DNA of 57,276 bases from a virus. Lineage: Duplodnaviria > Caudoviricetes. A program made the translations under genes and the position numbers. Numbering within the stretch: the stretch's first letter is position 1; each line of letters begins with the position of its first letter. A model generated the notes under the pieces. It was not told the origin of the DNA and did not search any database. It saw only the letters and a program-made list of their open reading frames with translations. The stretch spans positions 1 to 57,276 of IMG/VR virus record IMGVR_UViG_3300025890_000031; one strand, 5' to 3'. Below are positions 6,038-33,878 of the stretch, one piece after another.

Positions 6038-6968
6038 TTTCAGGAAACCACATTTCTGCTTTGCTAAACAATTCTATTCTTTCGTCTTTACTTAAATCTG
6101 ATGGGTCATTACCCCAATCAGGTTTATACCTACCAACCATGATAGGTAAGTCTATCTTATCACATACACTAGCACTTGCTAATTTACCAGCCTTATCATT
6201 GTCAAAACATAGAGCAATATAGGCAGGGTTTAGACGATTTAAGAGGGTTTTTTGAAAATCGCTAAAATGTGAGCCTAAAATAGCTAAAGCAGGTATACCA
6301 ACTTCCCAAAAAGCCATTGCATCTAAAGCACCTTCGACTAAAGCTAATCCACCATCATAATTTAACTTTTTCATGTTCTCGTTTATAAGTTGTGACTTTT
6401 GATACTCATGCTGTCCAAATAAATATCCAGCTTTTTGAAAGCCTTTTGGATATAAATATCTAATATTTGCATCTGGGTCTAATCTTCTCTTAATCACACC
6501 AATAACTTTCCCATGAAAAGTTCGTAAAGGTATAGTTACTGAATTACTTAATGGGTCATAGCCTAAAGAAAACTTTTCAATAGTTTTATCAGTTAATCCT
6601 CTTTCAGACCAATAATCATGTGGATATTTATATTGTTCTAGCCATTTTTCATCATGATATGAAGTTTCTTTATCTTTTATTGGGTCTGAAACGTATTCAT
6701 CTAGTTCACGAATAATATTATCTATTGCATCTATTGGTATTTCTTGTAGATATGGATAATTTTTCTTTATTCCTAATCTTCTAAGTAATCCATTCCAATT
6801 ACCCTTTTCTTGACACCCATGACAAATCCATAATCCGTTTTCTTTGTTTACAGCAAAGCTAGGATTACTGTCTGAGTGAAAAGGACACCTACAATAGTAT
6901 TCTTCTTCCGATTCTGTTACAACATCTAAATGTTTTGAAACTATATCGGCACGATACTTATTGACCAC
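6030..6968 (-). CDS. dnaG: DNA primase (CHC2 zinc finger plus TOPRIM)
   Basis: CPFHSD..PSF..CHGC zinc finger; VEGALD and FDNDKAG TOPRIM motifs. Confidence 0.92.
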   Translation of the reverse strand: MVNKYRADIVSKHLDVVTESEEEYYCRCPFHSDSNPSFAVNKENGLWICHGCQEKGNWNGLLRRLGIKKNYPYLQEIPIDAIDNIIRELDEYVSDPIKDKETSYHDEKWLEQYKYPHDYWSERGLTDKTIEKFSLGYDPLSNSVTIPLRTFHGKVIGVIKRRLDPDANIRYLYPKGFQKAGYLFGQHEYQKSQLINENMKKLNYDGGLALVEGALDAMAFWEVGIPALAILGSHFSDFQKTLLNRLNPAYIALCFDNDKAGKLASASVCDKIDLPIMVGRYKPDWGNDPSDLSKDERIELFSKAEMWFPENE

Positions 6969-7302
6969 GGTTAATCAAATCAACAGCATACCTATCTGCT
7001 ATTACTGTTTGATATTCGCTATATTCAAAATGTTCCCCACCAGCATGTTCACCAGTAACTTTTATTTTCCAATGAGTTTCACCTTTGTTATCTACGATAT
7101 TATCTATTTTTTCAATAATAACGCCTTGCTTGAAATTTCCTTCTATAACCATTCCAACTTTTAAATCTGATGGCTTATATGCTTGTTTATTTCCTAAAGG
7201 TATAGTTCTGCCGTAGCTTAGATAATATCTAACACCTGTTTTTTTTGGCATTTTGCTCCCTTTCCTTTCTATTAGAACAAACTCCACTTGCTCTTCATTC
7301 AT
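6958..7302 (-). CDS. Hypothetical protein
   Basis: 114-aa ORF overlapping both neighbours in the operon. Confidence 0.65.
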   Translation of the reverse strand: MNEEQVEFVLIERKGSKMPKKTGVRYYLSYGRTIPLGNKQAYKPSDLKVGMVIEGNFKQGVIIEKIDNIVDNKGETHWKIKVTGEHAGGEHFEYSEYQTVIADRYAVDLINRGQ

Positions 7303-7477
7303 TATTTAATAATATTCTTCCACGAACACGAGGATATTTCGTCTTGTGGTGAATATAACAAAATTTTTGATTATTATACTTACTTAGCATTTGCTCACAC
7401 TTTTCAGATTCACAAATTCTATTTTCACCATAAGTTTTAGATTTTCTAGCCTTTGGTCTTTGTGTACCTTCAATCAT
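7295..7477 (-). CDS. Small Cys/His-containing hypothetical protein
   Basis: C-x4-C ... C-x2-H pattern; AAGGA RBS. Confidence 0.65.
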   Translation of the reverse strand: MIEGTQRPKARKSKTYGENRICESEKCEQMLSKYNNQKFCYIHHKTKYPRVRGRILLNNE

Positions 7478-7679
7478 ATTTTTCCTTTCTTCTTCGGTAG
7501 GGGGATTAGTTACTCTCTTACTTTATCTCGCTTTGAGCCCTACCTATCTTCTATAGTAATTTCACCATTTGAATTGTCAATGATTTGGTTAAACTTTTTT
7601 TCATACAATTTTTTGAGTAAGAAATCTGGGTCATCTTTAAGTTGCTTTGCTTTAAAAACAACCCATTGATATTCTTGCA

Positions 7680-8966
7680 TCAGTCGTAATCTAAATCGTC
7701 TTGGTCAGCTAATATCAAGTCTTGTGCAATATCCCCTGATATTTCTTCAAACGAACCATTCCCTGGTGTAAATTTACAAAACCAGTTTTTATTATCTTGT
7801 CCGTGTCGGAACTTAGCTAACTTGAATTTAACAACGTGGGGAGATTTCTGTACTAGCGTAACTACACAATCTGCATCCATACCTATGGCATCAGATTGAG
7901 ATAAGTGAATAACTGATGGTGGTTCATTACCACCACCCTCTCTATTCATTTGTGCAGCGGATATGATGGGTATGTCATATCTCTGAGCGATTGCCTTGAT
8001 ATCAGCACTTAACGAAGCAACTGCTCGCCAATCATCTCCCCCAGACTTTAGTAATGTTAAATAATCTATATAAACAACAGTAGGTTTGTGTTCTTGTATT
8101 CTACTAGCCACGACTGCTGGAGATACAGCACCACGACTACCATCAACAACAGTAAAACTACCTTTTATTTTTTTAGGTATGTCTTGTAAGAATTTTTTAT
8201 ATGCTCTGATATCAAAGTTTTCACCTTTCATCAAGTCTAAAGATTTAAAAGTTTCTTTTCCATATTCTGAAGAAAGAAAACTCTGTACCCTAAACCCAAT
8301 TTGTTTTGAAGGTTGTTCTAAAGATACAAAAAGAACTTTTTCTCCTGCTTGTAATGCTGAACAAGCCATACGGATTAAAGTCCATGTCTTACCTTGACCT
8401 AACCTAGCACCTACTACCCAGAAATCTCCACCTGATGCTCCACCAGTTAAATTATCTAAGCTGGGAAAACCTGTAGGTATTCCTGCTAAACCTCGTTTAT
8501 CTTTAGCTGCTATTCTTCTTTCAATATCTGCTAATAAATAATCTCCATCATCTAAAATATTTAAAGTACTAGAACCTGTAGTAACTTTTTTCTGAAGTAA
8601 TAAAATATCTTGATATAAAGAATCTAATAACTTTTCTCCTGTTTCTTTTTCTTTAATATCTTCAAAAGTATTCTTCATTACAGAACTTATTTTAGTTCTT
8701 ACATAGTTATCTTTTACTTCAGAACAAAAATGTTCTAAATCATCTACTTTATATAAAACTACTTCAGGAAAGTTAGTTTTAAAAGCATTAGTACTAGGTA
8801 AAGTTCTATGCTGTATAAAGTATTTTTCTATCCATGAATATTCTTCAGGATAAGATATAAAGTATTCTCTACTTATTCCTTGTTCAGCTATTACTGCGTA
8901 GTCTTTTCTACGAAGCAAAGCAGAAACAAGAAGTATCTCAGGATGTGCTGACATCTTCTGCTCCAA
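7680..8966 (-). CDS. dnaB: DnaB-like replicative helicase
   Basis: GIPTGF, Walker A GARLGQGKT, SLEQ, YIDYL, AAQMNR, AKFRHG. Confidence 0.93.
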   Translation of the reverse strand: MEQKMSAHPEILLVSALLRRKDYAVIAEQGISREYFISYPEEYSWIEKYFIQHRTLPSTNAFKTNFPEVVLYKVDDLEHFCSEVKDNYVRTKISSVMKNTFEDIKEKETGEKLLDSLYQDILLLQKKVTTGSSTLNILDDGDYLLADIERRIAAKDKRGLAGIPTGFPSLDNLTGGASGGDFWVVGARLGQGKTWTLIRMACSALQAGEKVLFVSLEQPSKQIGFRVQSFLSSEYGKETFKSLDLMKGENFDIRAYKKFLQDIPKKIKGSFTVVDGSRGAVSPAVVASRIQEHKPTVVYIDYLTLLKSGGDDWRAVASLSADIKAIAQRYDIPIISAAQMNREGGGNEPPSVIHLSQSDAIGMDADCVVTLVQKSPHVVKFKLAKFRHGQDNKNWFCKFTPGNGSFEEISGDIAQDLILADQDDLDYD

Positions 8967-9089
8967 TCATCTATTTATTTTATTGTCCACAAGCTCTTGT
9001 GATTTTTCTAATCTAATACATCTTAAATTTTATACAAACAATTTCTATATTTTTTTTTTCATAGTATGCTTTCTACTGAAGGAGAGAAT

Positions 9090-9281
9090 TTGGAAAAATA
9101 TAAAGACCTTTTAGAAAGAGTCGGATTTACATTTGCTGAAGCATTTATTGGTGCAGTAGCTGTAGCTCCACTCATTGACTTAAATGCCTCAACTTTACAG
9201 TTGGCAATTATAGCAGGTGCTTCTGCCGCTCTTGTAGTAGTAAAAGAATTTGTTAAGAAAAATATGCCAGCAAAAAGCTAA
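9090..9281 (+). CDS. Holin-like membrane protein (r1t-type)
   Basis: LERxxxTFAEAF start and two TM helices; probable TTG start at 9090 after GAAGGAG RBS. Confidence 0.65.
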   Translation: MEKYKDLLERVGFTFAEAFIGAVAVAPLIDLNASTLQLAIIAGASAALVVVKEFVKKNMPAKS

Positions 9282-9287
9282 AGGTTA

Positions 9288-9364
9288 GGGGTGGATAAGG
9301 TAAGACTTGTTTAGTGTTGCGGGACAGTAGATAAGTAACGAGGGTTCAACTCCCTCCCACTCCA
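9288..9364 (+). ncRNA. Mini-tmRNA-like RNA: tRNA-like domain only, no mRNA-like domain
   Basis: Acceptor stem GGGGTGG/CCACTCC with G3-U wobble and discriminator A; stemless D loop ATAAGGTAAGAC; 13-bp capped hairpin; T arm GAGGG-TTCAACT-CCCTC. Confidence 0.75.
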
Positions 9365-9369
9365 CAGAT

Positions 9370-9717
9370 ATGTACGAATACGAAGGAATAGTAGAAAGAG
9401 TAGTTGACGGTGATACCGTTGACTGTTTATTGGATTTAGGTTTTAACACTTGGAAGAAATCTCGTGTTAGATTAGCAGGTATAGATGCTCCAGAATCCAG
9501 AACAAGAGATTTAGTTGAAAAAGCAAAAGGGTTAGAAGCTAAGAAGTGGCTCATTGACACGATACAAGAAAACAACAACAGGGTTGTGGTCAAATCGTTA
9601 GGAGTTGGTAAGTACGGAAGGTGTTTAGGCATCATCCTACTTCCAACTATGAATGTCAACGACAAAATGGTTGAGTTAGGATATGCAGTAGCTTATGATG
9701 GGAAATCCGCTAGATAA
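9370..9717 (+). CDS. Thermonuclease (SNase-like nuclease)
   Basis: VVDGDT, RLAGIDAPE, KYGR and MVELGYA motifs. Confidence 0.92.
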   Translation: MYEYEGIVERVVDGDTVDCLLDLGFNTWKKSRVRLAGIDAPESRTRDLVEKAKGLEAKKWLIDTIQENNNRVVVKSLGVGKYGRCLGIILLPTMNVNDKMVELGYAVAYDGKSAR

Positions 9718-9889
9718 CGACAAAGAACTACAAGCAGCAGTAGAAAGAACGGTTGCTAGTTTAGAACAACTTCTATCAATGATAGATGATTACTCAAACG
9801 ATAGATATTATCGTTGTTTTACATGTAGAAGAAAACTTTCTCAGCATCCTGGGAAGGTCTTTTGTTTAGAACGAGTGCAGTTCGATTAA
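9695..9889 (+). CDS. Hypothetical protein with CxxC/H/C motif
   Basis: 64-aa ORF overlapping the nuclease stop. Confidence 0.55.
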   Translation: MMGNPLDNDKELQAAVERTVASLEQLLSMIDDYSNDRYYRCFTCRRKLSQHPGKVFCLERVQFD

Positions 9890-10095
9890 GCTCTTAAAAA
9901 ATTTCCCAAAATTTTCATGGGGAATTGTGCCACTAAGGTAAATCATCTTCTGTTAGACGCCAAATAAGACCTTCTGGGGTGCTTTTAAGGGCTTGTTTAA
10001 TACTTTTGTGTGTATATCGATAGACGGCAGGGGCAGGCGTTTTTAAAAAAAAAATTTCACGATTTTTACTCGATAGCCTCGCAAAGCTCGGCAGT

Positions 10096-10218
10096 TTAAT
10101 CCCAATCTTCATCATAGTCGTATTCTATGACTTCAAAGTTCGGTTGTGATAATGTTTTAATAAGCGTTAGTACTTCTTTGATGAAGTAACCAAATAAAAA
10201 CCCTACTAAATAATCCAT
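10096..10218 (-). CDS. Small membrane peptide (40 aa, acidic tail)
   Basis: Manual translation MDYLVGFLFGYFIKEVLTLIKTLSQPNFEVIEYDYDEDWD; AAGGT RBS. Confidence 0.55.
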   Translation of the reverse strand: MDYLVGFLFGYFIKEVLTLIKTLSQPNFEVIEYDYDEDWD

Positions 10219-10241
10219 AATACCTTTAAATATAACAATAT

Positions 10242-10351
10242 AAAAGGAAAAGTCCACTTAGTGCATATTCACTTGCGTGAACATTCGTTGCATCCAAGTA
10301 GACTTGACCTAACACACGTAAACAACACAATATAGGAATATATAAAATGTT
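10242..10351 (-). ncRNA. Candidate small structured RNA or leader with terminator-like hairpin
   Basis: Hairpin at 10251-10304 (11-bp stem with 2 G-U on the minus strand, GCAA tetraloop), U-rich tail, promoter at 10358-10386. Confidence 0.5.
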
Positions 10352-10512: not shown

Positions 10513-10754
10513 CATTTTTTGTCTGTAGTTTTCTCCCAAATTTCTTATTGTATTGTGTACAGCCAAGATTTTTACAATATCTATAGCCTTTGATATTTTT
10601 ATATTTTCTATTGCAATTTTTGCAATTTTCTATTTTTTTCATGCTCTCTATTCATCGACTTCTAAAAATTTTCTCTATGTAAAAAATCACCGACCCACAG
10701 ATTTGTGGAAAAATCGTAATTTTTGGTGGGGTGGGGTGAAATATTTAAAATTGT

Positions 10755-10787
10755 AGTACTCCTCTCCTTATTGCAAAGGGTTGCAAA
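10755..10787 (+). repeat. Boundary element copy 1: AGTACTC-N5-CTTATTGC-N6-TTGCAAA
   Basis: Same blocks and spacing as 18082-18114. Confidence 0.65.
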
Positions 10788-11087
10788 TGGGTTTTAACTA
10801 TCGTGTATGAATGTACGCTCTCTCTATCAATCTCTAAGCTCCAGCGACCAATGTCCATTAAACTTTAAGCTCTCATTACCAGACTTAGCAAGTGATAACT
10901 CGTGATGTAGGTAGGCTTTTGTGCTCTTATTTGAGTTATACGCTACCTGCAAGGGTGGGGGTTGTTGAATTGAGAACATTGGATTAGGTTTTTCTGTCTG
11001 GTTAAATATTAAATCTTTTAGCTCTACATTTTCTCCTGCTATTAGTCCCAGAGTGAATGCTGTCTGTATATTCATAATGCTCTCATT

Positions 11088-11525
11088 CTAGTCTTTAACT
11101 ATTTCTCCATCAATTTCATCTCGTATAGCTGATAAGTACTCATCTTTAGTCCCATCAACAATCATAACACCCTGCGTTATTGTTTGATTAATTTCACTCT
11201 TACGAGGGCTATCTAGTCCATACATTTTGCTTATTCTATCCATAATGCTCAACGCTCTATCAATAGCACCAAGCTCCCCCTGTTGCACTCTCTCCCAAAG
11301 GATAAGTAACATCTGGTTAAGTCGTTCATATTCAACTGTACGGAGTTCATCTGTTGGCTCGGCTATGATTGATTTCATACTACGTTGTATAGACTTATAT
11401 GCTCCAGAACTATCGGCATACCCTAACTGCTTTGCTATGACCTCATAACTCGCACCTGCTTTCCTAAGCTCTAATGCCTGTCTATCTTTCTCCCTGACCT
11501 CAATGGATTTATTATTTACTTTCAT
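11088..11525 (-). CDS. terS: Terminase small subunit (HTH)
   Basis: ALELRKAGASYEVIAKQLGY HTH followed by helical region ending RISKMYGLD, an actinophage TerS-like pattern. Confidence 0.7.
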   Translation of the reverse strand: MKVNNKSIEVREKDRQALELRKAGASYEVIAKQLGYADSSGAYKSIQRSMKSIIAEPTDELRTVEYERLNQMLLILWERVQQGELGAIDRALSIMDRISKMYGLDSPRKSEINQTITQGVMIVDGTKDEYLSAIRDEIDGEIVKD

Positions 11526-11552
11526 GTACTCACTTTACCATACCCAAAAACT

Positions 11553-11679
11553 TAACTGTATGCAACGCCAAACCCAAGCTATCTTGATTATCCCATAGAG
11601 AGCCTTATTTATTGACTTGTTCGCCAATACTTAGGTAGCCTTTTTTGAGTACTTCATTGTTTGCCCCTGCATACAGTTA
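11553..11679 (-). ncRNA. Candidate structured RNA in the terS leader
   Basis: Perfect 12-bp closing stem TAACTGTATGCA/TGCATACAGTTA with nested G-U-containing helices. Confidence 0.5.
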
Positions 11680-12340
11680 CTAAAAGTACTCGCTACTAAC
11701 CTTATAAATACTACCTCTTTCCTATGAGTGCTTTATTTGACTTCTCTCCGTGCTACTTTATGCTTTGACTTCTAAAATAACTTATAAATGAGTGCTAAGT
11801 CCATACTAATGTTCTGGATAACATCAACCCAATTTTTTTGATTTTTTTTCTTTTTTGTGGGGATTTCTGTAAACTTTTCCCCTCATGTTTTAAATGCACT
11901 CAAATATGTGGCTATCGGCATGGATTGGTATTCTGTATTACCCCTGTGACTTAAAACATATCTTATGAGCTCTTTTTGATTTATTTGCATACTTCGACTT
12001 TTTTCAATTCCCTACTATTTTTTATTTATTTTTGAAAAACTCTTGTTGGTCGTATAAGCTGAAAAGAGTGCACCTAACCCCAAATACTGTCAGCTATAGC
12101 TTGTGAAATAAATCACAAAGATATAGTCTAAGCTACGTACTCATAGGTTTTTTGCTCAAAAATGGCTTATTTCTCCATGAATAATATACATGAAAAATGT
12201 ATAATTATACATGATTTAGGGAGTACATAGGTCTATAAGCCTATGAAATAAGGCTTAAAATAGCCCTTATTTTATGGGGTTTTATGGACGAGTACTAAAA
12301 AAAAACTTTTAAAATAGGCTACCTAAAACAATTACCTACA

Positions 12341-12346
12341 TATAAT
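12341..12346 (+). promoter_or_regulatory. Candidate -10 box (TATAAT) of the early operon; a second TATAAT at 12200-12205
   Basis: Perfect -10 hexamers in an AT-rich gap upstream of the plus-strand operon; -35 not clear. Confidence 0.4.
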
Positions 12347-12375
12347 TGTATTAGATATCTATATATCTAAATTCT

Positions 12376-12862
12376 CTTGGATTATGAGGACAATAGGTGG
12401 TAATTAGTCTACAGTCGCTGTCGGAGGACGGAATGGAACTGACTTTTAGCCTAAGTGAAAAATCTCCCAAGAGGACACACAGAGCTTGTGTATTCAAGCT
12501 GACTAGAGGTCAAACGCCTTCTCTTGCGACCTTACTGTCAGATGAGTACATAAGTTATGCCTTCGGTCAAGAGGGCTTAGTCTGTTGTGTTGGTGGTTGA
12601 TTTTATCACAACCATACGACTTGCAGAGTACATCTCAGCATAGCGTGTTGCACCAAGCCTGTTGGAGGGCGATACTTCAGTTCAAGAAGTAAAAACTACC
12701 AAGCTAGGTAGAGGACTAATGCTATATGTGTTAGAAATTGTCTGTGCGTTGGCGTGTAAGGAGGTCTTATTGCAAGTAATCTCCTGTGTAGCCAAATAGT
12801 TTGTGCAAGAGTACCATAATCATATAGAAGTTGTCTTTTCTTAATAACCAAGTTGCTACTTA
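12376..12862 (+). ncRNA. Candidate large (~480 nt) multi-stem non-coding RNA
   Basis: About 45% GC versus about 32% for the genome, no convincing ORF, closing stem 12376-12394/12830-12852 and at least 7 internal hairpins with G-U pairs. Confidence 0.65.
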
Positions 12863-12930
12863 ATAGAGTACGCCTAGTGGATATTCATACGTTACATTTC
12901 GTAGTGTACTCCAGAGAGTGAGAATACATT

Positions 12931-13221
12931 ATGAATAGATTAACAAATATAGAAATGCAGGAAATAGTTGAACAGTATGGTGAGGTCACATTCACTAGAA
13001 AACAACTAAAAGTAATTCGTGCATTATTAAACGCTACAACCAAAAAATTAGTTAACGAGTACGACAACAAGAATAGTAAATCTTTTCAAGTTGCTCTAAG
13101 CTCTTTATCTAAATTTAACTTTGATTTTGCTGACTACTGTCAAGAGGTCAATGACAACTTCAAAAGAGAAGTTTGGTTTGATGCTAACAACCTAACACGC
13201 AACGCTAGGCGTATATGGTAA
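12931..13221 (+). CDS. Hypothetical early protein
   Basis: 96-aa ORF with a purine-rich leader. Confidence 0.7.
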   Translation: MNRLTNIEMQEIVEQYGEVTFTRKQLKVIRALLNATTKKLVNEYDNKNSKSFQVALSSLSKFNFDFADYCQEVNDNFKREVWFDANNLTRNARRIW

Positions 13222-13376
13222 GAGTACTTAAATCAAAGTATTGGTGGTATTATGGCTTATTGTTTACAAAAATAAACAATATTCATTGTAGAGTACACTA
13301 CAAGACATGGCTCAAAATGTATGACTTTTATTCTTATAAAATTGAAAAAGGACTATCTATGTGGGAGGACTGCTAA
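13215..13376 (+). CDS. Small hypothetical protein (53 aa, aromatic-rich)
   Basis: Manual translation MVRVLKSKYWWYYG...MWEDC; overlaps both neighbours. Confidence 0.5.
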   Translation: MVRVLKSKYWWYYGLLFTKINNIHCRVHYKTWLKMYDFYSYKIEKGLSMWEDC

Positions 13377-13528
13377 TGATGGTTGACACTAGAATAAAAT
13401 GTCTATGTGGAGAACACATGGCTAAAATAAGCGTAATGGCTAACGTAAAAAGTACAACATTAGTACAATTTTTATGTTTCCATTGTGGTGCGAGTACAAT
13501 CGCCAAAGAACAAAGTAAAAGAATATAG
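13376..13528 (+). CDS. Small zinc-ribbon protein (50 aa)
   Basis: Manual translation shows CLCG...CFHCG; GGAGG RBS; TAATG coupling. Confidence 0.65.
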   Translation: MMVDTRIKCLCGEHMAKISVMANVKSTTLVQFLCFHCGASTIAKEQSKRI

Positions 13529-13620
13529 GAATATATTGGAGTACACTACGAAGTGTATAGTATGAAATATAAATTCAGTTATCTACGATAGGTCTGTGTC
13601 CTCGGAAAAGGAATAATAAA

Positions 13621-14514
13621 ATGAGTAAGAACACTCTAGCAGAGAACATCTCTGCATTAATACCTAACAAATCGCTTGAAAATTATGTCAAGAGAATTGT
13701 TGACGGAGGTCAAAACGACCTAGAACTACTAGATTACGCACACAAAAGCAGACACAATGTCCTCATTTCTGGGGATACAGGTGTTGGAAAAACTCATTGT
13801 GTTTCGGCACATGCAGAGAACATTCAATTACCCTTTGTATCTATTGCTTGTAATGGTGCGACTAACCCAGACCAAATGTTCGGTATGTTTATGCCGAGTA
13901 CAGAGGGAAAAGGTTTTGAATGGACAGATGGTGTCGTGACCTCATTGGTTAGACATGGTGGCGTTCTTTTGCTTGATGAAGTGAACTTTATGAAAGCAGA
14001 TATTGCCGCTGCCCTCCACCCATTACTAGATAGTCGTAGAACACTAACCTTAGTTGAAAATGGGGGAGAGGTCATCAAAGCTCATAAGGATTTTCAAGTT
14101 GTTGCTTGTATAAATCCTAACTATGAGGGCACAAGACCATTAAACGAAGCCTTTAAAAATCGTTTTGCCTTACAGGTAGAATTTGATTATGAAGGTAACT
14201 CAGAGGACATTTTGATTGATGGTAGACCAAGTTTACTTGAATTAGCCGATAGGTTAAGAGAAAGTAGAGAAAATGGAACTATCACAACACCTGTGAGTAC
14301 AAACGCTTTAATGGAATTTTGTGAGTTTGTTGAGGACTTGGGAATAGAGTTTGCTATAAGCAACTTTGTTAACAGATTTGAAATAGATGAACGAAGTGCA
14401 ATCAAAGAGTACTTTGATGTATTAATTCCTCAAATAGCAAGTGAATTTGGAACTGATGTTCCTGAACTCTTTGTTGTTGAACAACCAGATGAGGAAACTG
14501 ATACAGATGAATAG
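13621..14514 (+). CDS. MoxR-family AAA+ ATPase (CbbQ/NorQ/CobS-like)
   Basis: Walker A GDTGVGKT, Walker B LLLDEVN, NPNYEG, and AFKNRF Arg finger. Confidence 0.92.
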   Translation: MSKNTLAENISALIPNKSLENYVKRIVDGGQNDLELLDYAHKSRHNVLISGDTGVGKTHCVSAHAENIQLPFVSIACNGATNPDQMFGMFMPSTEGKGFEWTDGVVTSLVRHGGVLLLDEVNFMKADIAAALHPLLDSRRTLTLVENGGEVIKAHKDFQVVACINPNYEGTRPLNEAFKNRFALQVEFDYEGNSEDILIDGRPSLLELADRLRESRENGTITTPVSTNALMEFCEFVEDLGIEFAISNFVNRFEIDERSAIKEYFDVLIPQIASEFGTDVPELFVVEQPDEETDTDE

Positions 14515-16483
14515 TCATGGCGAGGACAATCTAAGTTTAGATGAAGTCCAAAAAATTCTCAATATGCACGAGGACAACGAAGATAGAGTTTTCGGAGATA
14601 TTGAAATGCAAGAACGACATGAGGACGTACAACGAGAAAGCAGTCGTATGAAAGCGATTGGTAATGCCTTTGCGAGTACATTTACTAAAGTAAATCGTAT
14701 TCTATCAGGTCAAAACGAAATCAATGTACTTATGACAGAGGACAATGCAGGTGTTGACGCACCTGCTTGGACTGATGGAGAACACGTTTATTTGAATAAG
14801 GCTTATGTGAATAAATCTTTTTCTAGTATTTTTAATAATGCTAAAATTGATTTTTCACAAATAGCTGAGGTCAAAGGCTTGAACTACCATGAGTTAGCTC
14901 ATATATTCTATACCCCACGAATGAGTGATAAAATCACTAAGCTCGTGAGGGCAAAAGCCGATTTAGATAATGATTGGTGGTATGCGTACAATGTACTAGA
15001 GGATATGAGGGCAGAAAGCTCTATCATTCATGTTTATTCTAAAATGATTGACTATTTCACTTATACAGTTATTAAGTACATATTGAATAATGAGGACAAC
15101 GAAAATGACACTTCGTATTTTCTTTTAAGTGGTAGATTTTTTCTACCTATTGAAATGAGAAATATGATGAGGTCATTATTCGCTCAAAAATATGGTACTA
15201 AATTCACTAAGAATATGGATAGCATTGTTAAGAAATATGTGGCTGAGGTCACATATACTTCTGCAAGGTATCAAGAGGGCTATGATTTGATTGAACGATT
15301 TGTGCTTGAAGTAATCAAGCCAATGAGGGCAAAAAGTGGTCAAGCCTTACCTAAGTGTATCGGTGGTAGTAGCCACCAACAACACCACCATGCAGGAGCT
15401 AAACGAGGAGGACATTGGAATAGCCGAAATGAAATGGGCAATATGTGGAAAGGAAAAACACAAGTTGCAGACCAAAAAGAGGTCAAACCATTCATTGAGG
15501 AACTAATTGATGAAGTTGAGAGTTTAGAAAAACAGGCAGGAAAACTTGGTGCTAAAGCAAGTAAGGGGAGTACTGATAATTTAAGTGCTAGTGAAGTTAA
15601 TGTTGAATTAGAAAAAATCTTAGAGATTGTGGAAAAGAGTCCACAATTTAAGAGTGATGTTAAAATTACTCAAAAAGATATTAGTCATAAAATAGAAACA
15701 GCTATAGAGGACAGTTATATTAAAGGTCTTGAAGTAGCTCCTAGTTTATTGACACCTAGTCAGAGTACATTAGCTACAAAAATACGTTTAAGGCGTTATT
15801 TTAGACAATTAAGAATGGACTTAGAGCAGGATTGGTTGACAGAAAAGAGGTCAGGCAAGGTTGATTTAAGTCGTTTTATGTCTACAGAACATTTAGGAAA
15901 AACCGACATTTTTAAACGTTGGAAACCTAATGACGAGGACGTAGCTAGTGCTGAATGTGTAATTCTTGTTGATATGTCTGGTAGTATGTCAGGCGTTATG
16001 GACTCTGTTAGTCAAATAGCTTGGCTATTAAAGAGTGAGTTAGACAATATAAATGTGAGGACTTCAGTTCTTGGATTTGCTAATAATTGTTATAAACTAT
16101 ATACACCAAACCAAAAAGCCGACAGAGGTCAATACTCTGCTTGGGCTAGTGGTGGGGGTACACAACCAATTTACACATTAAAACAAGCTAATAAAATATT
16201 GACTAAAACCGATAGAAAAAATAAGGTAGTTATTGCCCTCACTGATGGTGCATGGACTAACCATGATGATGAAATCGAGGAGGTCAAGAACTTGACTAAA
16301 AATTGTGATAGCTCAAACTTGCTATTCTTTGGCTCTTTTTACTCTTTTGAGGACAGAGGCAAAGATGAGAAAGTGAGTTTTTCACATTTTGATAATCTTA
16401 TTAAAATTAATAAGATTGAGGACACAGTAAAAGTAGCTAAACAATTAGTTGCCGATATTGTAAATAAAGTAATAAACCAATAA
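14507..16483 (+). CDS. Metallopeptidase-like plus vWA domain protein (CobT-like MoxR partner)
   Basis: HELAH...NVLEDMR zincin motif; MIDAS DMSGSM...T...LTDG; ATG at 14507 preferred over the track start at 14441. Confidence 0.88.
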   Translation: MNSHGEDNLSLDEVQKILNMHEDNEDRVFGDIEMQERHEDVQRESSRMKAIGNAFASTFTKVNRILSGQNEINVLMTEDNAGVDAPAWTDGEHVYLNKAYVNKSFSSIFNNAKIDFSQIAEVKGLNYHELAHIFYTPRMSDKITKLVRAKADLDNDWWYAYNVLEDMRAESSIIHVYSKMIDYFTYTVIKYILNNEDNENDTSYFLLSGRFFLPIEMRNMMRSLFAQKYGTKFTKNMDSIVKKYVAEVTYTSARYQEGYDLIERFVLEVIKPMRAKSGQALPKCIGGSSHQQHHHAGAKRGGHWNSRNEMGNMWKGKTQVADQKEVKPFIEELIDEVESLEKQAGKLGAKASKGSTDNLSASEVNVELEKILEIVEKSPQFKSDVKITQKDISHKIETAIEDSYIKGLEVAPSLLTPSQSTLATKIRLRRYFRQLRMDLEQDWLTEKRSGKVDLSRFMSTEHLGKTDIFKRWKPNDEDVASAECVILVDMSGSMSGVMDSVSQIAWLLKSELDNINVRTSVLGFANNCYKLYTPNQKADRGQYSAWASGGGTQPIYTLKQANKILTKTDRKNKVVIALTDGAWTNHDDEIEEVKNLTKNCDSSNLLFFGSFYSFEDRGKDEKVSFSHFDNLIKINKIEDTVKVAKQLVADIVNKVINQ

Positions 16484-16556
16484 CACATTAGAGGGCATTA
16501 GACCTATCGTAGATAACTGAATATCTTAACTACTCTTTATAGAAATGGAGGACTGC

Positions 16557-16721
16557 ATGAATTTGCAACCTATGTTTTTCAAAGATTGCCCTAACTGTAA
16601 CATGAGTACAGTATGGACAGCTTTGGAACAAGTTAATGAACTCGAACAACGTGTAGAATGTGATGAATGTCAAACGACAGAAATCATGCCTAGAGTTGCA
16701 GAGGACTTAGTCAATGGTTGA
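16557..16721 (+). CDS. Small zinc-ribbon protein (54 aa)
   Basis: Manual translation shows CPNC...CDEC; GGAGG RBS. Confidence 0.7.
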   Translation: MNLQPMFFKDCPNCNMSTVWTALEQVNELEQRVECDECQTTEIMPRVAEDLVNG

Positions 16722-17100
16722 TGATATTAAAAACATTTTAATTTCACTTAACCAAATAAGATTAAGTCGTATGAGTTTAGATGACCAAGAGAGTACTTTA
16801 AAACAACGATTACTAGATTATTTTAAATCTAGTGATATGGCTAAATTCAATGTATCACATGAGGGCAAGAATATACGTGCTACCCAAGTGAACAATGATA
16901 GAGTTATTATTGATGAGTTAGGACTTATAGAGAACATATCTCCAGAACAATATGATAAAATCATAAAAAAATCTGTTGATAGAAAACTCTTAGAAATAGC
17001 CATTAGTAATGGGGATATTAGCGAGGACTTAGCTAAACAGTTTATTAAAGTACAAGCAGGAAAAAAATACATTAAACTTAATGTTGAGGAGGACAAGTAA
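16714..17100 (+). CDS. Hypothetical protein
   Basis: 128 aa, GAGG RBS, coupled to neighbours. Confidence 0.7.
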   Translation: MVDDIKNILISLNQIRLSRMSLDDQESTLKQRLLDYFKSSDMAKFNVSHEGKNIRATQVNNDRVIIDELGLIENISPEQYDKIIKKSVDRKLLEIAISNGDISEDLAKQFIKVQAGKKYIKLNVEEDK

Positions 17101-17399
17101 TGGTACAACCACCAAATACTAGCCCCTCAGCATTGAGGACTTATGTTAATAGTAAGACAAGAAATAAAATGTATTTACCAAGTGACCTAGCGAGGTCATT
17201 AGGTGTGTCTGTTAAAACAGTACGCAGGTGGATTAAGGAGAGCAAAATATTACCTAGTGTTCATTTAGAACAAGGAAAAAACCTTATACCCCTATGGACT
17301 GCCGAGGACATAATCTATGTACAGAATTGGTATCTAAAGAAAAGTAAAGGAAAACAACCCAAATATAGAGAGGAGGTCAGTACTGATGATAACATTTAG
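17100..17399 (+). CDS. MerR/excisionase-like HTH DNA-binding protein
   Basis: SDLARSLGVSVKTVRRW HTH. Confidence 0.8.
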   Translation: MVQPPNTSPSALRTYVNSKTRNKMYLPSDLARSLGVSVKTVRRWIKESKILPSVHLEQGKNLIPLWTAEDIIYVQNWYLKKSKGKQPKYREEVSTDDNI

Positions 17400-17589
17400 T
17401 AGTGGCTTACATTTCGGCATTATTGTAACTATGATTTCTGTAGTTATGTTTTTAGCATACGAGGTCTTTAATGTACTTCGTTTGTCTTATGCCGAATATA
17501 AATATAATAAAGAAAAACCTATTGAAGTAGACTTCTCCACGAGGTCTGGTAGAGAAAAGTTTTTCAATGAAACTTACAAAAAATGGTAA
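17386..17589 (+). CDS. Small membrane protein
   Basis: N-terminal TM helix; GGAGG RBS. Confidence 0.65.
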   Translation: MITFSSGLHFGIIVTMISVVMFLAYEVFNVLRLSYAEYKYNKEKPIEVDFSTRSGREKFFNETYKKW

Positions 17590-17798
17590 AAACATCTAGC
17601 TTAGACGAGGGCGATACTGTTGAACATTCGCTTACAGTTGAAACGAATGTTTTAGGCAATAAGATATGGCTTAAAACAGGAGCAACAACTAAGGTGAGGA
17701 CAGGGGAAACCCCAAGTGGTGCTAGTAAAAGATTAGCCAACTTTGTGAGTAGGAGAACATCTCAGCAATTACAAGAGTTGAGAAAAACAAGCGAGTAG
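17583..17798 (+). CDS. Hypothetical protein
   Basis: 71 aa, last gene before the terminator. Confidence 0.6.
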   Translation: MVKTSSLDEGDTVEHSLTVETNVLGNKIWLKTGATTKVRTGETPSGASKRLANFVSRRTSQQLQELRKTSE

Positions 17799-17820
17799 TT
17801 GAGTACGTATTTCATACAAT

Positions 17821-17869
17821 GGGATAGCAATTTTATTAATTTAAAATTTGCTATCCCCACTTTTTTTTT
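17821..17869 (+). terminator. Intrinsic terminator of the early operon
   Basis: GGGATAGCAA/TTGCTATCCC stem followed by T9. Confidence 0.8.
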
Positions 17870-18081
17870 GCTCTCTTTTTCACTTTCTTCTATCGCTGCT
17901 ATTTTTTATTATTGCTTTTTTTTTGCTCTCTTTTAGAAGCAAAATGGCTGGGGGTTCAGGTAAAAAAAAAGTACTCGTCACCATCATGGGCATCTGGATT
18001 GTTATAAAATGCACTCATATTTTTGGTGATTTCGTCAGGAGCATCTGCACTCTTTTAAATATTCTTCTTCCTTCGCTGCAC

Positions 18082-18114
18082 AGTACTCTAAAACTTATTG
18101 CGAACCCTTGCAAA
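18082..18114 (+). repeat. Boundary element copy 2: AGTACTC-N5-CTTATTGC-N6-TTGCAAA
   Basis: Matches 10755-10787, 7327 bp away. Confidence 0.65.
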
Positions 18115-18271
18115 AATAATTTGTACTCAAAAATGAGAAAAAAAAAGTTTTGTCCTCTTTTTCTACGGATATGTCTTCTAGGGACTTTTCAAAATGCACT
18201 CGGAAATTCAAAAACTTTACAATTCAGGTTGAAGGTGATTTATGTTTTACGAAAGTAGAGTGCTAAATTTA

Positions 18272-19657
18272 TTAAACAGACCAGGGACTTTTCTGTCTTA
18301 CAAAATCAATTAATGGTGCGATTGCTTCAAACTTATATCCACGTTCAGCCCAAGCTAAAGCCATAGCTACCATACTGTCAGGTGTATGACCATTTCCATA
18401 TATATCATCAAAACCTGCGTATTTGTGGTCTTGATACATACTTTCTACCATAGGACTTTGAATTAACCCACGCTCACAAGCAGATATATATTCAGAAAAT
18501 AAATTCTTTTTATTACTACCAGTAATTACATAAGGTATTGAATCTATTTCTATGTAATCTTCTACAACATTACCTATACCAGTAGCGTCATGTACTAGCT
18601 TACCAGGGTATTTCGCCACTCTATCCTGTGCTTTTTTAACCATATCTCCCCATGCTTCTCTGTGTGTTCTTTCAAAAGCAACTACACGCCATGGTTCTAC
18701 GTCAGTTCTAAGGGTTGCTATTACTGTGTAATCTCGTTGCTTAGCCCAGTCAATGCCAGTAATGTATACCCCCTCCCCATTGTATTTTTCAAATAAATAT
18801 TCTTTACCTACTTCTCCAGATACTTTTGGATGAGTGCTTAATGAAAACATTTCATCGACTTTAGCTGCGTCTATAGCTCTACCTTCAAAAGAAGGTTCTT
18901 GCATATCAAATTCTATATCCCACATAGCTTGTGAAACTTCACTTCTTTTTCTTTCTACTTCTGAAACTGGTAGCCAGCCATGTGGTTGTACTGTTTCTCT
19001 CCAACACCATTCATAAACAGGATATCCTTTTTCTTTAGCTCTTTTAAGCATTTCTGTCATAGTTTTATCTGGATACTGGTGTGTAGAAGAAGCTACAGTT
19101 TGTGTTTGAATGCCATTTTTAGACATAGGTTGCCCCTGTGCTGCCTCTAAAATCTCTAATTCCATTTCGTCTATCTCATCAAGCCTTAGTCTTTGTGGAT
19201 GTTGACCACGAACAGACCTTTGTGAAGCCGTTAAAGCTCTAATCCAAGCTCCTGTAGTTAAGTTTGTTGAATATTTATTAGGTTGGTCGACTAAAAGACC
19301 TGTAGGTGCGTTCTTATGTGCCCATGCTTCTAAAGATATTTCATAAACACGAAGTGATTGTGCTGCTGAACCACCTAAAACTGTTACTTGTGCCCCTAGT
19401 GTTACTGCTTCAGTTAAAGCTAGTAGCCCTAATGTATTAGTTTTTCCTCCCATACCACGACTAGCCTTCCAAATAGAAAAAGGTGACCTTGCAAAATAAG
19501 CATCAGCAAAAGCATCAAATGGAGATTGGTGGTGTGGACAAATAGGTGTTCTAGGTATTGATATTCCCCATAATAAACGAACTACTTCCCATAATTCATC
19601 ATTATCTTGTGGTGGTCTACCTAATATTAATTGTTTTTTTGCTTCGGTTTTTTCCAT
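18272..19657 (-). CDS. terL: Terminase large subunit
   Basis: Walker A SRGMGGKT, Walker B LRLDEID, nuclease GIDWA...D, DATGIG, PDSMVA. Confidence 0.9.
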   Translation of the reverse strand: MEKTEAKKQLILGRPPQDNDELWEVVRLLWGISIPRTPICPHHQSPFDAFADAYFARSPFSIWKASRGMGGKTNTLGLLALTEAVTLGAQVTVLGGSAAQSLRVYEISLEAWAHKNAPTGLLVDQPNKYSTNLTTGAWIRALTASQRSVRGQHPQRLRLDEIDEMELEILEAAQGQPMSKNGIQTQTVASSTHQYPDKTMTEMLKRAKEKGYPVYEWCWRETVQPHGWLPVSEVERKRSEVSQAMWDIEFDMQEPSFEGRAIDAAKVDEMFSLSTHPKVSGEVGKEYLFEKYNGEGVYITGIDWAKQRDYTVIATLRTDVEPWRVVAFERTHREAWGDMVKKAQDRVAKYPGKLVHDATGIGNVVEDYIEIDSIPYVITGSNKKNLFSEYISACERGLIQSPMVESMYQDHKYAGFDDIYGNGHTPDSMVAMALAWAERGYKFEAIAPLIDFVRQKSPWSV

Positions 19658-20537: not shown

Positions 20538-21968
20538 TTAGCCTTCTATATGCTTTGGAGTTGAACCTGGTTTAAGTGGGTCATACATATCTCCACCTTT
20601 ACCTTCTTTTTTATCATACACAACACCTCTTCTTTTCGCAGCAAAGTTGTCTAAGTATGTTACAGGCATATCAGGTTTTACTCTTTCTTTAACTAAATTT
20701 TGACCTGGGTTTCCACCGTATATTAACAAATGCTCTGGTTGTAAAGCATCTAAAGCTATTTTTGTACAATTAGCTAATACTTGTGTTGATTTTTCTCTTG
20801 TATCACGGTTTGGATTACCTTCTTCAGCGTCTATGTTTTGTAAGCAAATAGCTAAGATTGGTGGATTTTTTGGTATTCCTAACATAGCAATATCCATTGA
20901 TTGTTCATCTGCAAATTGAACACGTGGTATTACCTTCATACCAGTTTCTTGAAACATACGACCTAACCATTGTGCGTTATAGACTGCTTGTAAATGAAAA
21001 GCCTTTGGCTCTGTATAATAAAAAGAGAAGTCTGGTACAACTGCTGTTTTAATTCCAGCAGCTAAGACTTTTTGTATCATGTATCCAGTATGTGTTATAA
21101 AATTAAAAAACTTATCATCATAAGTAAAGAAAGACATAATAGCTCTGTCATACGGCATACCTATTGGTCTTGCTAATCCGTAGTTCCATAGCCAATGTGT
21201 TATACCATCATCAGGTGTAGCATCTCTACCTGCCCAAGTATCTAAGGGTTTTGGTAGTTTTTCTAATAACATATCTCTTCTAAGTTCTGGTATATCCCAT
21301 CTGTTATTTGTTGGTAAGAATAACTTTTCTTCGTCAATCATCATTATGTTATTATCTATTTGTTCGTCTAATTCTTCATTATCATCAAACCCATCCAGGT
21401 CATCTTCATTTTCTGTGCTCAAAATATTATCAGTTGGTAATCCGTCACCAATATCTAGTGTGTCTGGTATAGAAATATCTACACCTTGTGGGTTTGATAA
21501 ACCTTCAACATAAGTATCTAATCCTGCGTTCGTGCTTGTTAAACCTTCAAATGTTTGTGAAAGACTTCTGTCAACAGCATCAACTATTAAGCTAACATCT
21601 TGTTCTGTATAGCCAGTACCAATAGGGTTGCTAACATTTTGCAATAAATTAGCTAATTGACTTGTATCATAAGTTGCTAAATCGTTTGTTCTGTTGTCTG
21701 CTAATACTATTTTTGAAGCTGATTCATCATCTACATCAACAAAAGCTACTGATATAGTTTCCCATCCTAAAGATTTAGCCGCTAACCATGTGTGGTTTCC
21801 TGCTAAAATAGAATTATCTTTTTGGTTAACAACAATAGGTTTATACTGTTTATTTTCGTCTAATGATTCAGCTATAGCTTCTATGCTACCTATTCTGGGA
21901 TTTCCCTTGTATGCTTTTAATGTATCTAGCTTTACATCTTTTATTTCTACAACCCTATTGTTTGACAT
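20538..21968 (-). CDS. ParB/Srx N-terminal domain fused to a DUF4417-like domain
   Basis: NPR...PIVV...ILAGNH...LADNR ParB motif; FFTYDDKF, PDFSFY and GMKVIP DUF4417-like motifs; acidic linker. Confidence 0.75.
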   Translation of the reverse strand: MSNNRVVEIKDVKLDTLKAYKGNPRIGSIEAIAESLDENKQYKPIVVNQKDNSILAGNHTWLAAKSLGWETISVAFVDVDDESASKIVLADNRTNDLATYDTSQLANLLQNVSNPIGTGYTEQDVSLIVDAVDRSLSQTFEGLTSTNAGLDTYVEGLSNPQGVDISIPDTLDIGDGLPTDNILSTENEDDLDGFDDNEELDEQIDNNIMMIDEEKLFLPTNNRWDIPELRRDMLLEKLPKPLDTWAGRDATPDDGITHWLWNYGLARPIGMPYDRAIMSFFTYDDKFFNFITHTGYMIQKVLAAGIKTAVVPDFSFYYTEPKAFHLQAVYNAQWLGRMFQETGMKVIPRVQFADEQSMDIAMLGIPKNPPILAICLQNIDAEEGNPNRDTREKSTQVLANCTKIALDALQPEHLLIYGGNPGQNLVKERVKPDMPVTYLDNFAAKRRGVVYDKKEGKGGDMYDPLKPGSTPKHIEG

Positions 21969-22347
21969 TTTTCTCCTTTGCTTGCAATTCTAATACTTTT
22001 TCATAATTATCTTGTAATAATTTTCTTTCTTGTGGTGTGTAACCACCAAATATACCTTCGTCAGACTTTGTTATTACTGCAAAGTCTAAACATTCCCTTT
22101 GAACTTCACATCCTTTACAAATACTTTTAGCTTCATCTTCTGTGTATAAATATTCTCCATTTACTTTAACTGTTGGGAAGAAAATATTACTATCTCTACC
22201 AACGCAGTTACCATAGTTTTTCCAATCTCCTTCAAGTAATATCTGAATATCATCTATTGTTTTCCAGTTACTTGGCTTTTCTCTTATGAAAGAAGGTTGA
22301 AACTTAGGTATGAGCTTGCCATATTTAAGTTGTTCGTCTTCTTCCAT
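21955..22347 (-). CDS. whiB: WhiB-family transcription factor
   Basis: C...FFP...AKSICKGCEVQREC...GIFGGYTPQER. Confidence 0.92.
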   Translation of the reverse strand: MEEDEQLKYGKLIPKFQPSFIREKPSNWKTIDDIQILLEGDWKNYGNCVGRDSNIFFPTVKVNGEYLYTEDEAKSICKGCEVQRECLDFAVITKSDEGIFGGYTPQERKLLQDNYEKVLELQAKEKNVKQ

Positions 22348-23198: not shown

Positions 23199-23955
23199 GA
23201 TTATTAAACTCCAAACACCCATTTCTATATGGACACATCTGGTATTCTTTTCCTTGTCTAATTCTACAGTTGTCTTTAACGTCAGGATAAGTTTTAAAAG
23301 CAGCACTATCTTCTAATGATTGCATTTCCATTTTTACTTCAGTTAATAATTTTTCGTCTGGATAAACTAAAAACTCTTTCCAGTCTTGGGTTCTTTTATC
23401 TTCGTATACAACACTAAAGACTGTTATCTCAGGGTCTAAAACAAAGTAAGTGTGTATTTGTTTTAAGTGCATATCTGTTACAGCAGTAGGCATATAGCTA
23501 GTTCCTTTTAATTCAAAACCGTATTTACCATGTTTTGCATTTTTACCCATACCATCAACAGAACCACCAAAGGTAGGGTATTTTTCACTAGATACTTTTG
23601 CCTCTACTTCGGTTAAAGCACCAGAAAGTAAACACATCATTTGCCAACGTATGTGTCGCCATGTACCGTCATTAAATAAATTTTGTAACACTACATCAAT
23701 GGTATCTAGCTTTGTGATATCTCCTGTATACTCAAACACTTGTCTTCTTTCACATAAGCCACGGCTAGAAGCACCAAACCTTCCTGTTCTTTTTGAGTTT
23801 GAATTATCTGAAACAATATCAATTAAAGTTTGTTGTATCTTCTCATCAGTAACAACAATATTTCTTTCGTTTGCTAAAAACTTATCAACTATTGGTGTAA
23901 TAATCTTTTCAGTTTTTTCTAAATTCAAATCGTTCATTAAGCTAGTTAGTGACAT
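23188..23955 (-). CDS. Cas4-like PD-(D/E)xK exonuclease
   Basis: ASS..LC, G..H, GSVDG, ELKG, Q...Y and C-terminal C..C..C cluster; probable start at 23955. Confidence 0.75.
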   Translation of the reverse strand: MSLTSLMNDLNLEKTEKIITPIVDKFLANERNIVVTDEKIQQTLIDIVSDNSNSKRTGRFGASSRGLCERRQVFEYTGDITKLDTIDVVLQNLFNDGTWRHIRWQMMCLLSGALTEVEAKVSSEKYPTFGGSVDGMGKNAKHGKYGFELKGTSYMPTAVTDMHLKQIHTYFVLDPEITVFSVVYEDKRTQDWKEFLVYPDEKLLTEVKMEMQSLEDSAAFKTYPDVKDNCRIRQGKEYQMCPYRNGCLEFNNHGR

Positions 23956-24391: not shown

Positions 24392-24519
24392 TATCACTCC
24401 TTTTTGTAAAACACTCATAACAAGCATTGACTTCAAAATTAATTACTGGGTCATCTTCAGGTTTAAGAAACCACTCCACTTCTGTAAGTATATCATTACA
24501 AAAATAACATTGTTGTAAT

Positions 24520-33846: not shown

Positions 33847-33878
33847 AATGCTATTCTATCATGCTATTATATCTATTA

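Follow-up and report, generated by a model that had tools for sequence, protein, structure and literature searches.

What do two related 33-bp elements do at the two edges of a motif-dense zone in a marine phage genome? The question is raised by IMG/VR record IMGVR_UViG_3300025890_000031 (Duplodnaviria; Caudoviricetes), a viral contig of 57,276 bp that was analysed at its full length and is called the window here. The left element (E1) and the right element (E2), together the twins, had been taken in an initial annotation, made from the letters alone, for the points where packaging starts and stops, bounding a ~7.3-kb long terminal repeat, or else for a pair of recombination or operator sites. 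We find that the twins do stand at the zone edges and resemble one another more than chance allows, that contig depth speaks against the terminal repeat, and that a boundary role for the twins is supported. What they would do at that boundary we infer from their sequence and surroundings.

Twin elements and the zone they enclose

The elements and the sites that belong to them are as follows.

10755-10787, assigned to the - strand: left twin element E1, reading AGTACTCCTCTCCTTATTGCAAAGGGTTGCAAA on the + strand (sequence search)
18082-18114, assigned to the - strand: right twin element E2, reading AGTACTCTAAAACTTATTGCGAACCCTTGCAAA on the + strand, with the architecture of E1 (sequence search)
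10772-10785: E1 dyad, TGCAA-AGGG-TTGCA, with perfect 5-bp inverted arms (read from the sequence)
18099-18112: E2 dyad, TGCGA-ACCC-TTGCA, with a 4/5 match per arm (read from the sequence)
10756-10761, - strand: zone hexamer GAGTAC in E1, the leftmost of the 91 zone sites
18083-18088, - strand: zone hexamer GAGTAC in E2, the third zone site from the right end
18123-18128: second GAGTAC, on the other flank of the E2 dyad (motif search)
10756-18157, both strands: hexamer-coded zone with 91 sites, 74 on the + strand and 17 on the - strand (motif count)

The twins stand as direct repeats on the + strand, 7327 bp apart, and 24/33 of their bases are identical. The nine mismatches fall in two blocks and leave perfect runs of 7, 8 and 7 bases, a type of block pattern that arose in 7.25e-4 of 200,000 trials when nine mismatches were placed randomly. 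When the shared 22-base pattern is searched with up to 3 mismatches allowed, exactly two matches are found in the window, E1 and E2 themselves, and 100 dinucleotide-preserving shuffles gave a mean of 0.00 matches, so the two elements are confirmed at their positions and with their identical spacing. The similarity ends abruptly at both edges. An exact search of the viral contig collection for the full 33-bp pattern returned 0 other records, using a tool that may omit the window's own record.

Read on the - strand, both twins have the same layout of a dyad, 9 nt and GAGTAC(T), which in E1 takes the form TTTGCAA-N6-GCAATAAG-N5-GAGTACT. The cores AAGGGTT (E1) and AACCCTT (E2) are exact reverse complements, as had been noticed at the outset. 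The dyad was originally described as TTGC-N8-GCAA; this is present in both twins, yet such a pattern is not rare (3 matches vs 1.05 expected, with 11/100 shuffles reaching 3), and TGCAA-N4-TTGCA is the better description.

Both twins lie 3' of leftward genes. E2 is 158 bp downstream of the stop codon of terL, the large terminase gene, inside a 474-bp non-coding spacer, and E1 is 40 bp downstream of an open reading frame (ORF) of 82 amino acids (aa) and 300 bp downstream of a gene for a 145-aa helix-turn-helix (HTH) protein. The ORFs that overlap the twins (10553-10756 on the + strand, 10745-10858 on the - strand and 17848-18258 on the + strand) have no family match where tested, and the last of them is without a counterpart among the ORFs of the relatives L004 and L005. 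Both twins are effectively non-coding, as first proposed. Their proposed placement just downstream of terS and terL holds for terL, while the terS assignment found no confirmation.

The zone between the twins is built from four words: GAGTAC (30 sites), GAGGAC (28), GAGGTC (20) and GAGGGC (13). All 30 copies of GAGTAC, counting both strands, fall between 10756 and 18128, and none of the four words occurs on either strand in the remaining 49,705 bp. Markov models of orders 0-3 predict 17-41 copies outside the zone (5-14 on the + strand and 12-29 on the - strand), and 300 triplet-block shuffles gave 33.6 +/- 5.7 and never fewer than 21. Among the neighbouring words, GAGAAC, GAGATC and GAGTTC are also depleted outside the zone, and GAGTGC and GAGAGC are not.

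The hexamers are oriented and evenly spread. Of those inside ORFs, 58/63 have the sense orientation, spread over the three reading frames (34/18/6), and the other 28/91 are non-coding. The base that follows the hexamer is C in only 1/91 sites, and a further flanking consensus is absent. Leftward-pointing sites run from 10756 to ~12137 and rightward-pointing ones from 11647 to 17801; between 17971 and 18152 the direction is leftward once more, and as this last stretch is non-coding, the orientation of the hexamers there is not a codon effect. For leftward movement, E1 is the last zone site that bears a hexamer. Spacing in the window is regular at about 60-80 bp (median 69 bp, minimum 27), and the 114 sites of L005 have a mean spacing of 64.5 and a standard deviation of 23.6, for a coefficient of variation of 0.37, where random scatter would give a value near 1. 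Helical phasing of the spacing (~10.5 bp) was dropped, since the window supports it (P 0.01) but L004 (P 0.09) and L005 (P 0.23) do not agree.

Zone and twins in related phages

Four viral contigs whose terL is 88-92% identical to that of the window are syntenic with it across the zone at 70-80% nucleotide identity, and further contigs of the same clade came from a metagenome scan and an HTH-protein scan. In L003, L004 and L006 this word family counts 96-106 sites, and the only one outside the homologous zone is a GAGGGC inside terL. In the whole contig of the relative G001 (56,842 bp), all 50 copies of GAGGAC lie within 6.65 kb. In L005, GAG-type words are without excess (9 in 12.9 kb), and the zone (2993-10286) holds 114 words of a GCG type, all of those in the contig, which follow the code GCG[GT][AGT]C: GCGTAC (25), GCGGAC (23), GCGGTC (21), GCGTTC (21), GCGGGC (13) and GCGTGC (11). 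L097 is also of the GCG type.

At the 91 sites of the window, L004 has an identical hexamer in 53 cases and another allowed hexamer in 12, has lost the site in 22 and has a gap in 4; background hexamers are 20% identical. L005 has kept none of the 91, compared to 8% of background hexamers, and GAG sites at positions aligned with L005 have been destroyed, not converted. By this site-by-site comparison of L004 and L005 with background hexamers, the sites are under selection. The hexamers behave as functional sites, with four words that can stand in for one another and that were re-keyed in one lineage. The code as a whole, an oriented hexamer specific to the lineage and repeated at regular spacing within a single module, is a robust and unusual finding. 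The proteins of the zone diverge faster than flanking ones: between the window and L005, identity is 37% for the protein with a VWA domain, 58% for the AAA ATPase and 88% for terL.

The zone type is absent from L007, from L008 and from 26 longer metagenome loci that carry terL relatives of at most 56% identity, as well as from 49 loci of at least 9 kb that do not belong to the close clade but have a relative of the 145-aa protein among their genes. Gordonia phage GMA6 is without a hexamer zone, though its gene layout around AAA and VWA is similar. Elsewhere, clustered hexamers were seen as tandem repeats only, such as the (CAGTAC)n microsatellites in L149-L151 (e.g. L151 7146-7290), and L122 has a GCTAGC-rich tandem array (5210-5673); all these unrelated contigs code for a relative of the 145-aa HTH protein. 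Both kinds of array are a different phenomenon from the zone.

The two twins differ in conservation. The core of E2 is found in 8/8 aligned relatives as TGC(A/G)A-N5-TTGCA, with one arm changed in L010, and its architecture of hexamer, dyad and hexamer-like word is also found in 8/8; in L005 both flanks read GCGTAC, following that lineage's own code. The E1 hexamer is kept as GAGTAC in L003, L004 and L006 and gives way to GCGTAC in L005.

Genes of the module and the phage map

Other features of the module and its neighbourhood are listed here.

18272-19657, - strand: terL, large terminase, 461 aa (phrog_9, E 2.9e-5; profile match to solved TerL nuclease domains, 5tge E 5.7e-10)
11088-11525, - strand: candidate DNA-binding protein of 145 aa, an N-terminal HTH followed by long helices (phrog_645; AlphaFold2 (AF2) model, pLDDT 78.5)
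17100-17399, + strand: MerR/excisionase-type HTH protein of 99 aa, candidate DNA binder (family search)
13621-16483, + strand: AAA_5 (MoxR/CobS-like) ATPase and VWA protein, whose genes are larger than any other in the module (AAA_5 E 1.5e-23, VWA_2 E 5.6e-7)
11526-12930: ORF-poor control region between the leftward and rightward genes, where the hexamer polarity switches
17821-17869, + strand: hairpin (17821-17857) followed by a 9-T run (-21.8 kcal/mol, z -4.62, 0/200 shuffles fold as well)
10725-10738, + strand: G-rich tract GGTGGGGTGGGGTG, ~17 bp beyond the E1 hexamer and outside the zone, nearly invariant in 4 aligned relatives, L005 included

Nearly all genes of the phage are on the - strand, and the block at ~12.4-17.8 kb is on the + strand. 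The hairpin and T run at 17821-17869, ~210 bp before E2, look like an intrinsic terminator at the end of this rightward block. Within the control region, non-coding DNA at 12385-12885 (+ strand) is 79-81% conserved at the nucleotide level, compared to ~70% in neighbouring genes, and RNAalifold on 4 genomes folds it into 150 pairs, of which 12 show compensatory changes, with a long-range helix that closes the structure. We consider it a candidate structured RNA of ~500 nt; it holds 12 zone hexamers and has no Rfam match. A search for tRNA genes found none, and no Rfam family reached its gathering score, with one sub-threshold hit in 10600-13700.

Two pairs of inverted repeats were seen in the module. 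A perfect 23-nt pair (13573-13595 and 16500-16522) brackets the AAA and VWA genes, with each arm adjoining a zone hexamer, and a 30-nt pair (90%) that contains GAGTAC (12884-12913 and 13537-13566) brackets a cluster of small ORFs. Both could be long-range RNA stems or cassette ends.

Residues 4-54 of the 145-aa protein resemble the DNA-binding domain of DeoR (Z 8.7, root-mean-square deviation (rmsd) 1.2, 50 residues aligned). This protein is the putative terS of the initial annotation; Pfam, PDB sequence search, the AF2 model, Foldseek and VIA-align recovered only a generic HTH. Covariation did not single out a reader of the hexamers: the HTH of the 145-aa protein is almost invariant between GAG-type and GCG-type phages, and that of the 99-aa protein varies without a clear pattern. 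Families of methyltransferases, restriction enzymes, RNA polymerases and integrases were not found in the ORFs by PHROGs and Pfam.

The genome is of siphovirus type, with a tape measure protein, major tail protein, portal and capsid. It also encodes a DnaE-like polymerase, a DnaB-like helicase, a primase, a RecA/UvsX-like recombinase and a ParB-DUF4417 protein. The nearest cultured phages are distant, actinophages and some others: the capsid is ~46% identical to those of Arthrobacter phages and Roseobacter phage RDJL Phi 1, and in Gordonia phages the AAA ATPase is 41-48% and DnaE 35-38% identical. Among INPHARED phages there was no match to the 9 kb around the zone and, by tblastn, none to terL. 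We also noted a T4 endonuclease V-like pyrimidine-dimer glycosylase (23942-24436; Pyr_excise, E 5.4e-24), a WhiB-like regulator (21955-22347; E 8.4e-18) and a tryptophan-halogenase-like gene (33861-34889) that is a lone + strand gene in a - strand block.

G001 joins the right end of the window (position 57149) to its left end (position 515), so the map is circular, ~57 kb long and essentially complete, and the CheckV completeness estimate of 81% is probably too low. L090 (19637-19845) also crosses the window ends. At the junction, ~640 bp are replaced by ~208 bp in the relative.

Readings of the twins and known systems

We read the twins, tentatively, as composite, oriented sites for protein binding at the boundaries of a module that is divergently transcribed and probably early, the binding itself being a prediction. 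In each twin a fixed spacing links the - strand GAGTAC to a dyad of operator-like form, TGCAA-N4-TTGCA, and for leftward movement along the - strand the two have one orientation. E2 sits where leftward transcription out of terL would come into the module, and E1 where the leftward transcript of the module itself would go out. A phage protein that binds the dyad as a dimer could work with a reader of the hexamer to form an orientation-dependent stop or insulator at each edge, a logic that would be comparable to that of the oriented 'stoperator' sites of Cluster A mycobacteriophages. The perfect blocks of 7, 8 and 7 bases between fully diverged spacers are what we would expect of selected contact positions and not of a decaying duplicate. 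Since there is no significant RNA hairpin at the twins, a terminator made of nucleic acid only is unlikely and a protein partner would be needed; the two HTH proteins encoded inside the module count as support. Protein binding, the transcription-boundary function, the early timing and the identity of the reading protein are all predictions.

Several observations weigh against this reading. The E1 dyad is absent at the aligned place in 4/4 relatives (L003, L004, L005 and L006), a search for the dyad pattern found one dyad per relative, on the terL side, and the two-gate design is not conserved across the clade. Conservation in relatives had been suggested as a check on the pair, and it holds for E2, kept in 8 relatives, and not for E1, the hexamer excepted. 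The E2 of the window is without 7 nt that are present in relatives, and E1 has the same derived spacing, so E1 is most simply a lineage-specific copy of E2; it may be a recent one and not an independently selected site. Sigma-70-type promoter scans around the twins are at chance level, and the recognition helices of the two HTH proteins do not clearly track the switch from GAG to GCG. Isolated hexamers are avoided on both strands outside the zone, which fits a single-site enzyme (cutting, nicking or modifying) at least as well as a cooperative roadblock. The transcript directions and the 'early' label are read from gene strands, gene content and the one terminator-like hairpin. No binding protein was identified for the dyad or the hexamers.

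If E1 is a copy, it could be a by-product of illegitimate recombination or gene conversion between the hexamer-rich edges, with only E2 or neither twin functional. The E1 dyad is confined to the lineage of the window, E1 carries the lineage-specific spacing of E2, and the ~50 bp to the right of the E1 hexamer, up to the 82-aa ORF, cannot be aligned with relatives, as after a replacement. Set against this, the differences between E1 and E2 are confined to two spacer blocks with 22 designated positions identical (P ~7e-4 for random placement), and E1 appears less polymorphic than its right flank, with 1 variable position in 33 bp vs 8 in the 31 bp to its right among the matches listed. The block-wise identity suggests that E1 has since been held by selection, and we consider a functionless by-product rather improbable, if a serious competitor.

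The avoidance of isolated hexamers outside the zone argues for a reader that would act at single sites, and instead of coating the DNA cooperatively this reader may modify or nick one strand as an enzyme. A broader model would treat the 7.4-kb module as carrying a lineage-specific 'zip code', an oriented hexamer every ~60-80 bp that is written into codons and purged elsewhere. A dedicated single-site reader, acting by strand-specific modification, nicking or roadblocking, would switch the early module as a unit, the twins would load or stop the reader, and the change from GAG to GCG would re-key the lock, leaving the two lineages under independent control or mutually immune. We offer this model as a speculation that is more doubtful than probable.

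For the proposed terminal repeat we compared depth in Logan contigs of four runs from four studies, out of 23 runs available as contigs (X2, X3, X5 and X7, of which X5 is labelled a viral metagenome), setting contigs wholly inside the zone against contigs wholly outside it; the per-contig mean k-mer depth is a coarse proxy in which molecule ends are invisible. Depths were 7.14, 7.99 and 6.2 inside and 6.36, 6.73 and 6.27 outside in X2, and 6.69, 8.84 and 5.46 inside and 9.17, 7.63, 3.66 and 7.65 outside in X3, where both means are ~7.0. The inside mean was lower than the outside mean in X5 (5.38, 4.35, 3.1 and 5.97 vs 5.67, 4.89 and 7.63) and in X7 (2.9-4.0 vs 10.5, 4.7 and 7.28). Contigs bridge E1 in X2, X5 and X7, and E2 in X2, X3 and X7. 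Doubled contig depth between the twins was thus seen in 0/4 runs, which contradicts the idea that packaging begins and ends at them and that they delimit a ~7.3-kb long terminal repeat.

Some other features of these contigs deserve mention. In X5 and X7 contig cover is thinner inside the zone, which we read as strain variation. A poly-T-rich spot of the control region (11834-11860) is strain-variable: there the contigs from several runs end or part ways, and loose ends fall at 11834, 11850 and 11855. X2, X3 and X7 each have a contig that runs from 20430 back to 19634 through 12 additional letters, at a depth of 30-96 compared to ~7 for the phage. This join could reflect a tandem duplication or a small circle, or else come from an abundant relative whose genes near the JAB-domain gene are ordered differently.

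A terminal repeat in the style of T5 or SPO1, with terminase cutting or nicking at both twins and the zone present twice per virion genome, would account for direct repeats 7327 bp apart that flank an early-type gene block beside terL, and a circular assembly map is also expected from a collapsed terminal repeat. Given the depth result and the lack of a conserved E1 in relatives that keep the same zone, we regard it as highly improbable. Packaging could also involve E2 alone, or both twins, as a terminase pac or cos site bound by the HTH of a small terminase, with no long terminal repeat and with the twin as a second binding site. The clade-conserved position of E2 in the non-coding spacer directly downstream of the confirmed terL suits a pac or cos site, TTGCAA-like hexamers recur at a 10-bp period, the circular or permuted map fits headful packaging, and the AF2 model of the 145-aa protein has an HTH and helical-hairpin layout that we take to be compatible with small terminases. 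That protein, however, cannot be demonstrated to be TerS: it matches no Pfam terminase family and no PDB sequence, its Foldseek E values exceed 2, its comparison with G20c TerS (Z 5.8, rmsd 9.4) falls in a range called unspecific, and the database names of its relatives are 'hypothetical' or 'transcriptional regulator'. We think a packaging site unlikely.

Site-specific recombination at the twins would give a 7.3-kb inversion, from the reverse-complement cores, or an excision if the twins are read as direct repeats. The geometry has some appeal, since inverted arms surround an asymmetric 4-bp core and the two cores are opposite in orientation (TGCAA-AGGG-TTGCA and TGCGA-ACCC-TTGCA), and the block between the twins is transcribed opposite to the remaining genome. 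Yet PHROGs and Pfam found no integrase, invertase or resolvase family among the ~80 ORFs, and with a complete map no gene set is missing from that scan. The block is inverted or missing in 0/4 syntenic relatives, no inversion or deletion joint at the twin sites was found in the 4 runs, E1 is missing in relatives, and the extended flank AGTACTC-N5-CTTA is on the same side of both twins, which is not the geometry of inverted sites. Of the suggestion of recombination or operator sites, then, the operator-like dyad survives, while the ~57-kb map has no recombinase and the 4 runs and 4 relatives have no rearranged junction; recombination sites we hold to be very improbable. Scarcely better placed are plain RNA-level signals, that is, intrinsic terminators or promoters for leftward transcripts. 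Both twins follow leftward genes, and on the - strand E2 contains TTGCAA-N17-TAGAGT and E1 TTTGCA-N16-TACAAT. These promoter-like matches reach 8-9/12 and differ between the twins, sigma-70 promoter scans around the twins gave 13 vs 13.8 and 6 vs 12.4 in shuffles, simple terminator scans there were also at chance level, and the twins fold no better than shuffles (z -0.05 to -1.12 on both strands; -0.70 and -0.05 on the - strand).

A false lead has been removed, and the genome should not be annotated with a 7.3-kb terminal repeat. If the boundary sites and the zip code are true, the phage would address one contiguous gene set by a dense short word in coding and non-coding DNA while its other genes are word-free. 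This would be a partitioning of the genome into regulatory domains, and neither such partitioning nor a comparable zone was found described for phages in those parts of the literature that the search covered. The one-base change of the sister lineage, from GAG to GCG and rewritten at >100 places, is a natural experiment on the co-evolution of a code and its reader. The twins are the most tractable entry point, being short and defined, with few DNA-binding proteins encoded by the phage.

Several known systems resemble parts of this arrangement. The long terminal repeats of T5 and SPO1 hold early and host-takeover genes. Like them, the block considered here is several kb long, has small early-type genes, is rich in repeats, lies beside packaging genes and is bounded by defined sequences; unlike them, it shows no depth doubling in 4 runs, and one boundary site is not conserved. 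The twins are like the operators of dimeric HTH proteins in having a dyad with 5-bp inverted arms and a 4-5-bp spacer, with HTH proteins encoded nearby, and unlike them in lying at gene 3' ends without a recognisable promoter and in being fused to an asymmetric hexamer at fixed spacing. In host chromosomes, matS with MatP, GATC clusters with SeqA, Chi and KOPS are domain-restricted or polar motifs at a scale of hundreds of kb. As in those systems, a short motif in the zone carries information in its distribution and orientation, and the dedicated reader protein that exists there is predicted here. To our knowledge, none of them combines ~60-80 bp spacing, embedding in coding sequence, total avoidance elsewhere and a lineage-specific change of the word.

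The closest comparison is with the stoperators of Cluster A phages. The L5 repressor is reported to bind >20 asymmetric 13-mers whose orientation follows transcription, located in promoters and short intergenic gaps across the whole genome (PMC9283540). Set beside those sites, the zone has a 6-bp word in 91 copies, 63 of them inside ORFs, at regular spacing, all in 7.4 kb and avoided elsewhere, and membership of the stoperator family fails on site length, number, location and distribution. No immunity-repressor family was found among the ORFs in the PHROGs and Pfam scans, which did not include an L5-repressor-specific search. What the zone does share with stoperators of the L5 gp71-type immunity repressor is the presence of many asymmetric copies oriented with transcription (58/63 ORF sites sense) and a site sequence that differs between related phages. 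The phage itself, with its WhiB gene and its actinophage-like DnaE, AAA and capsid genes, also resembles the Cluster A phages, whose hosts are actinobacterial.

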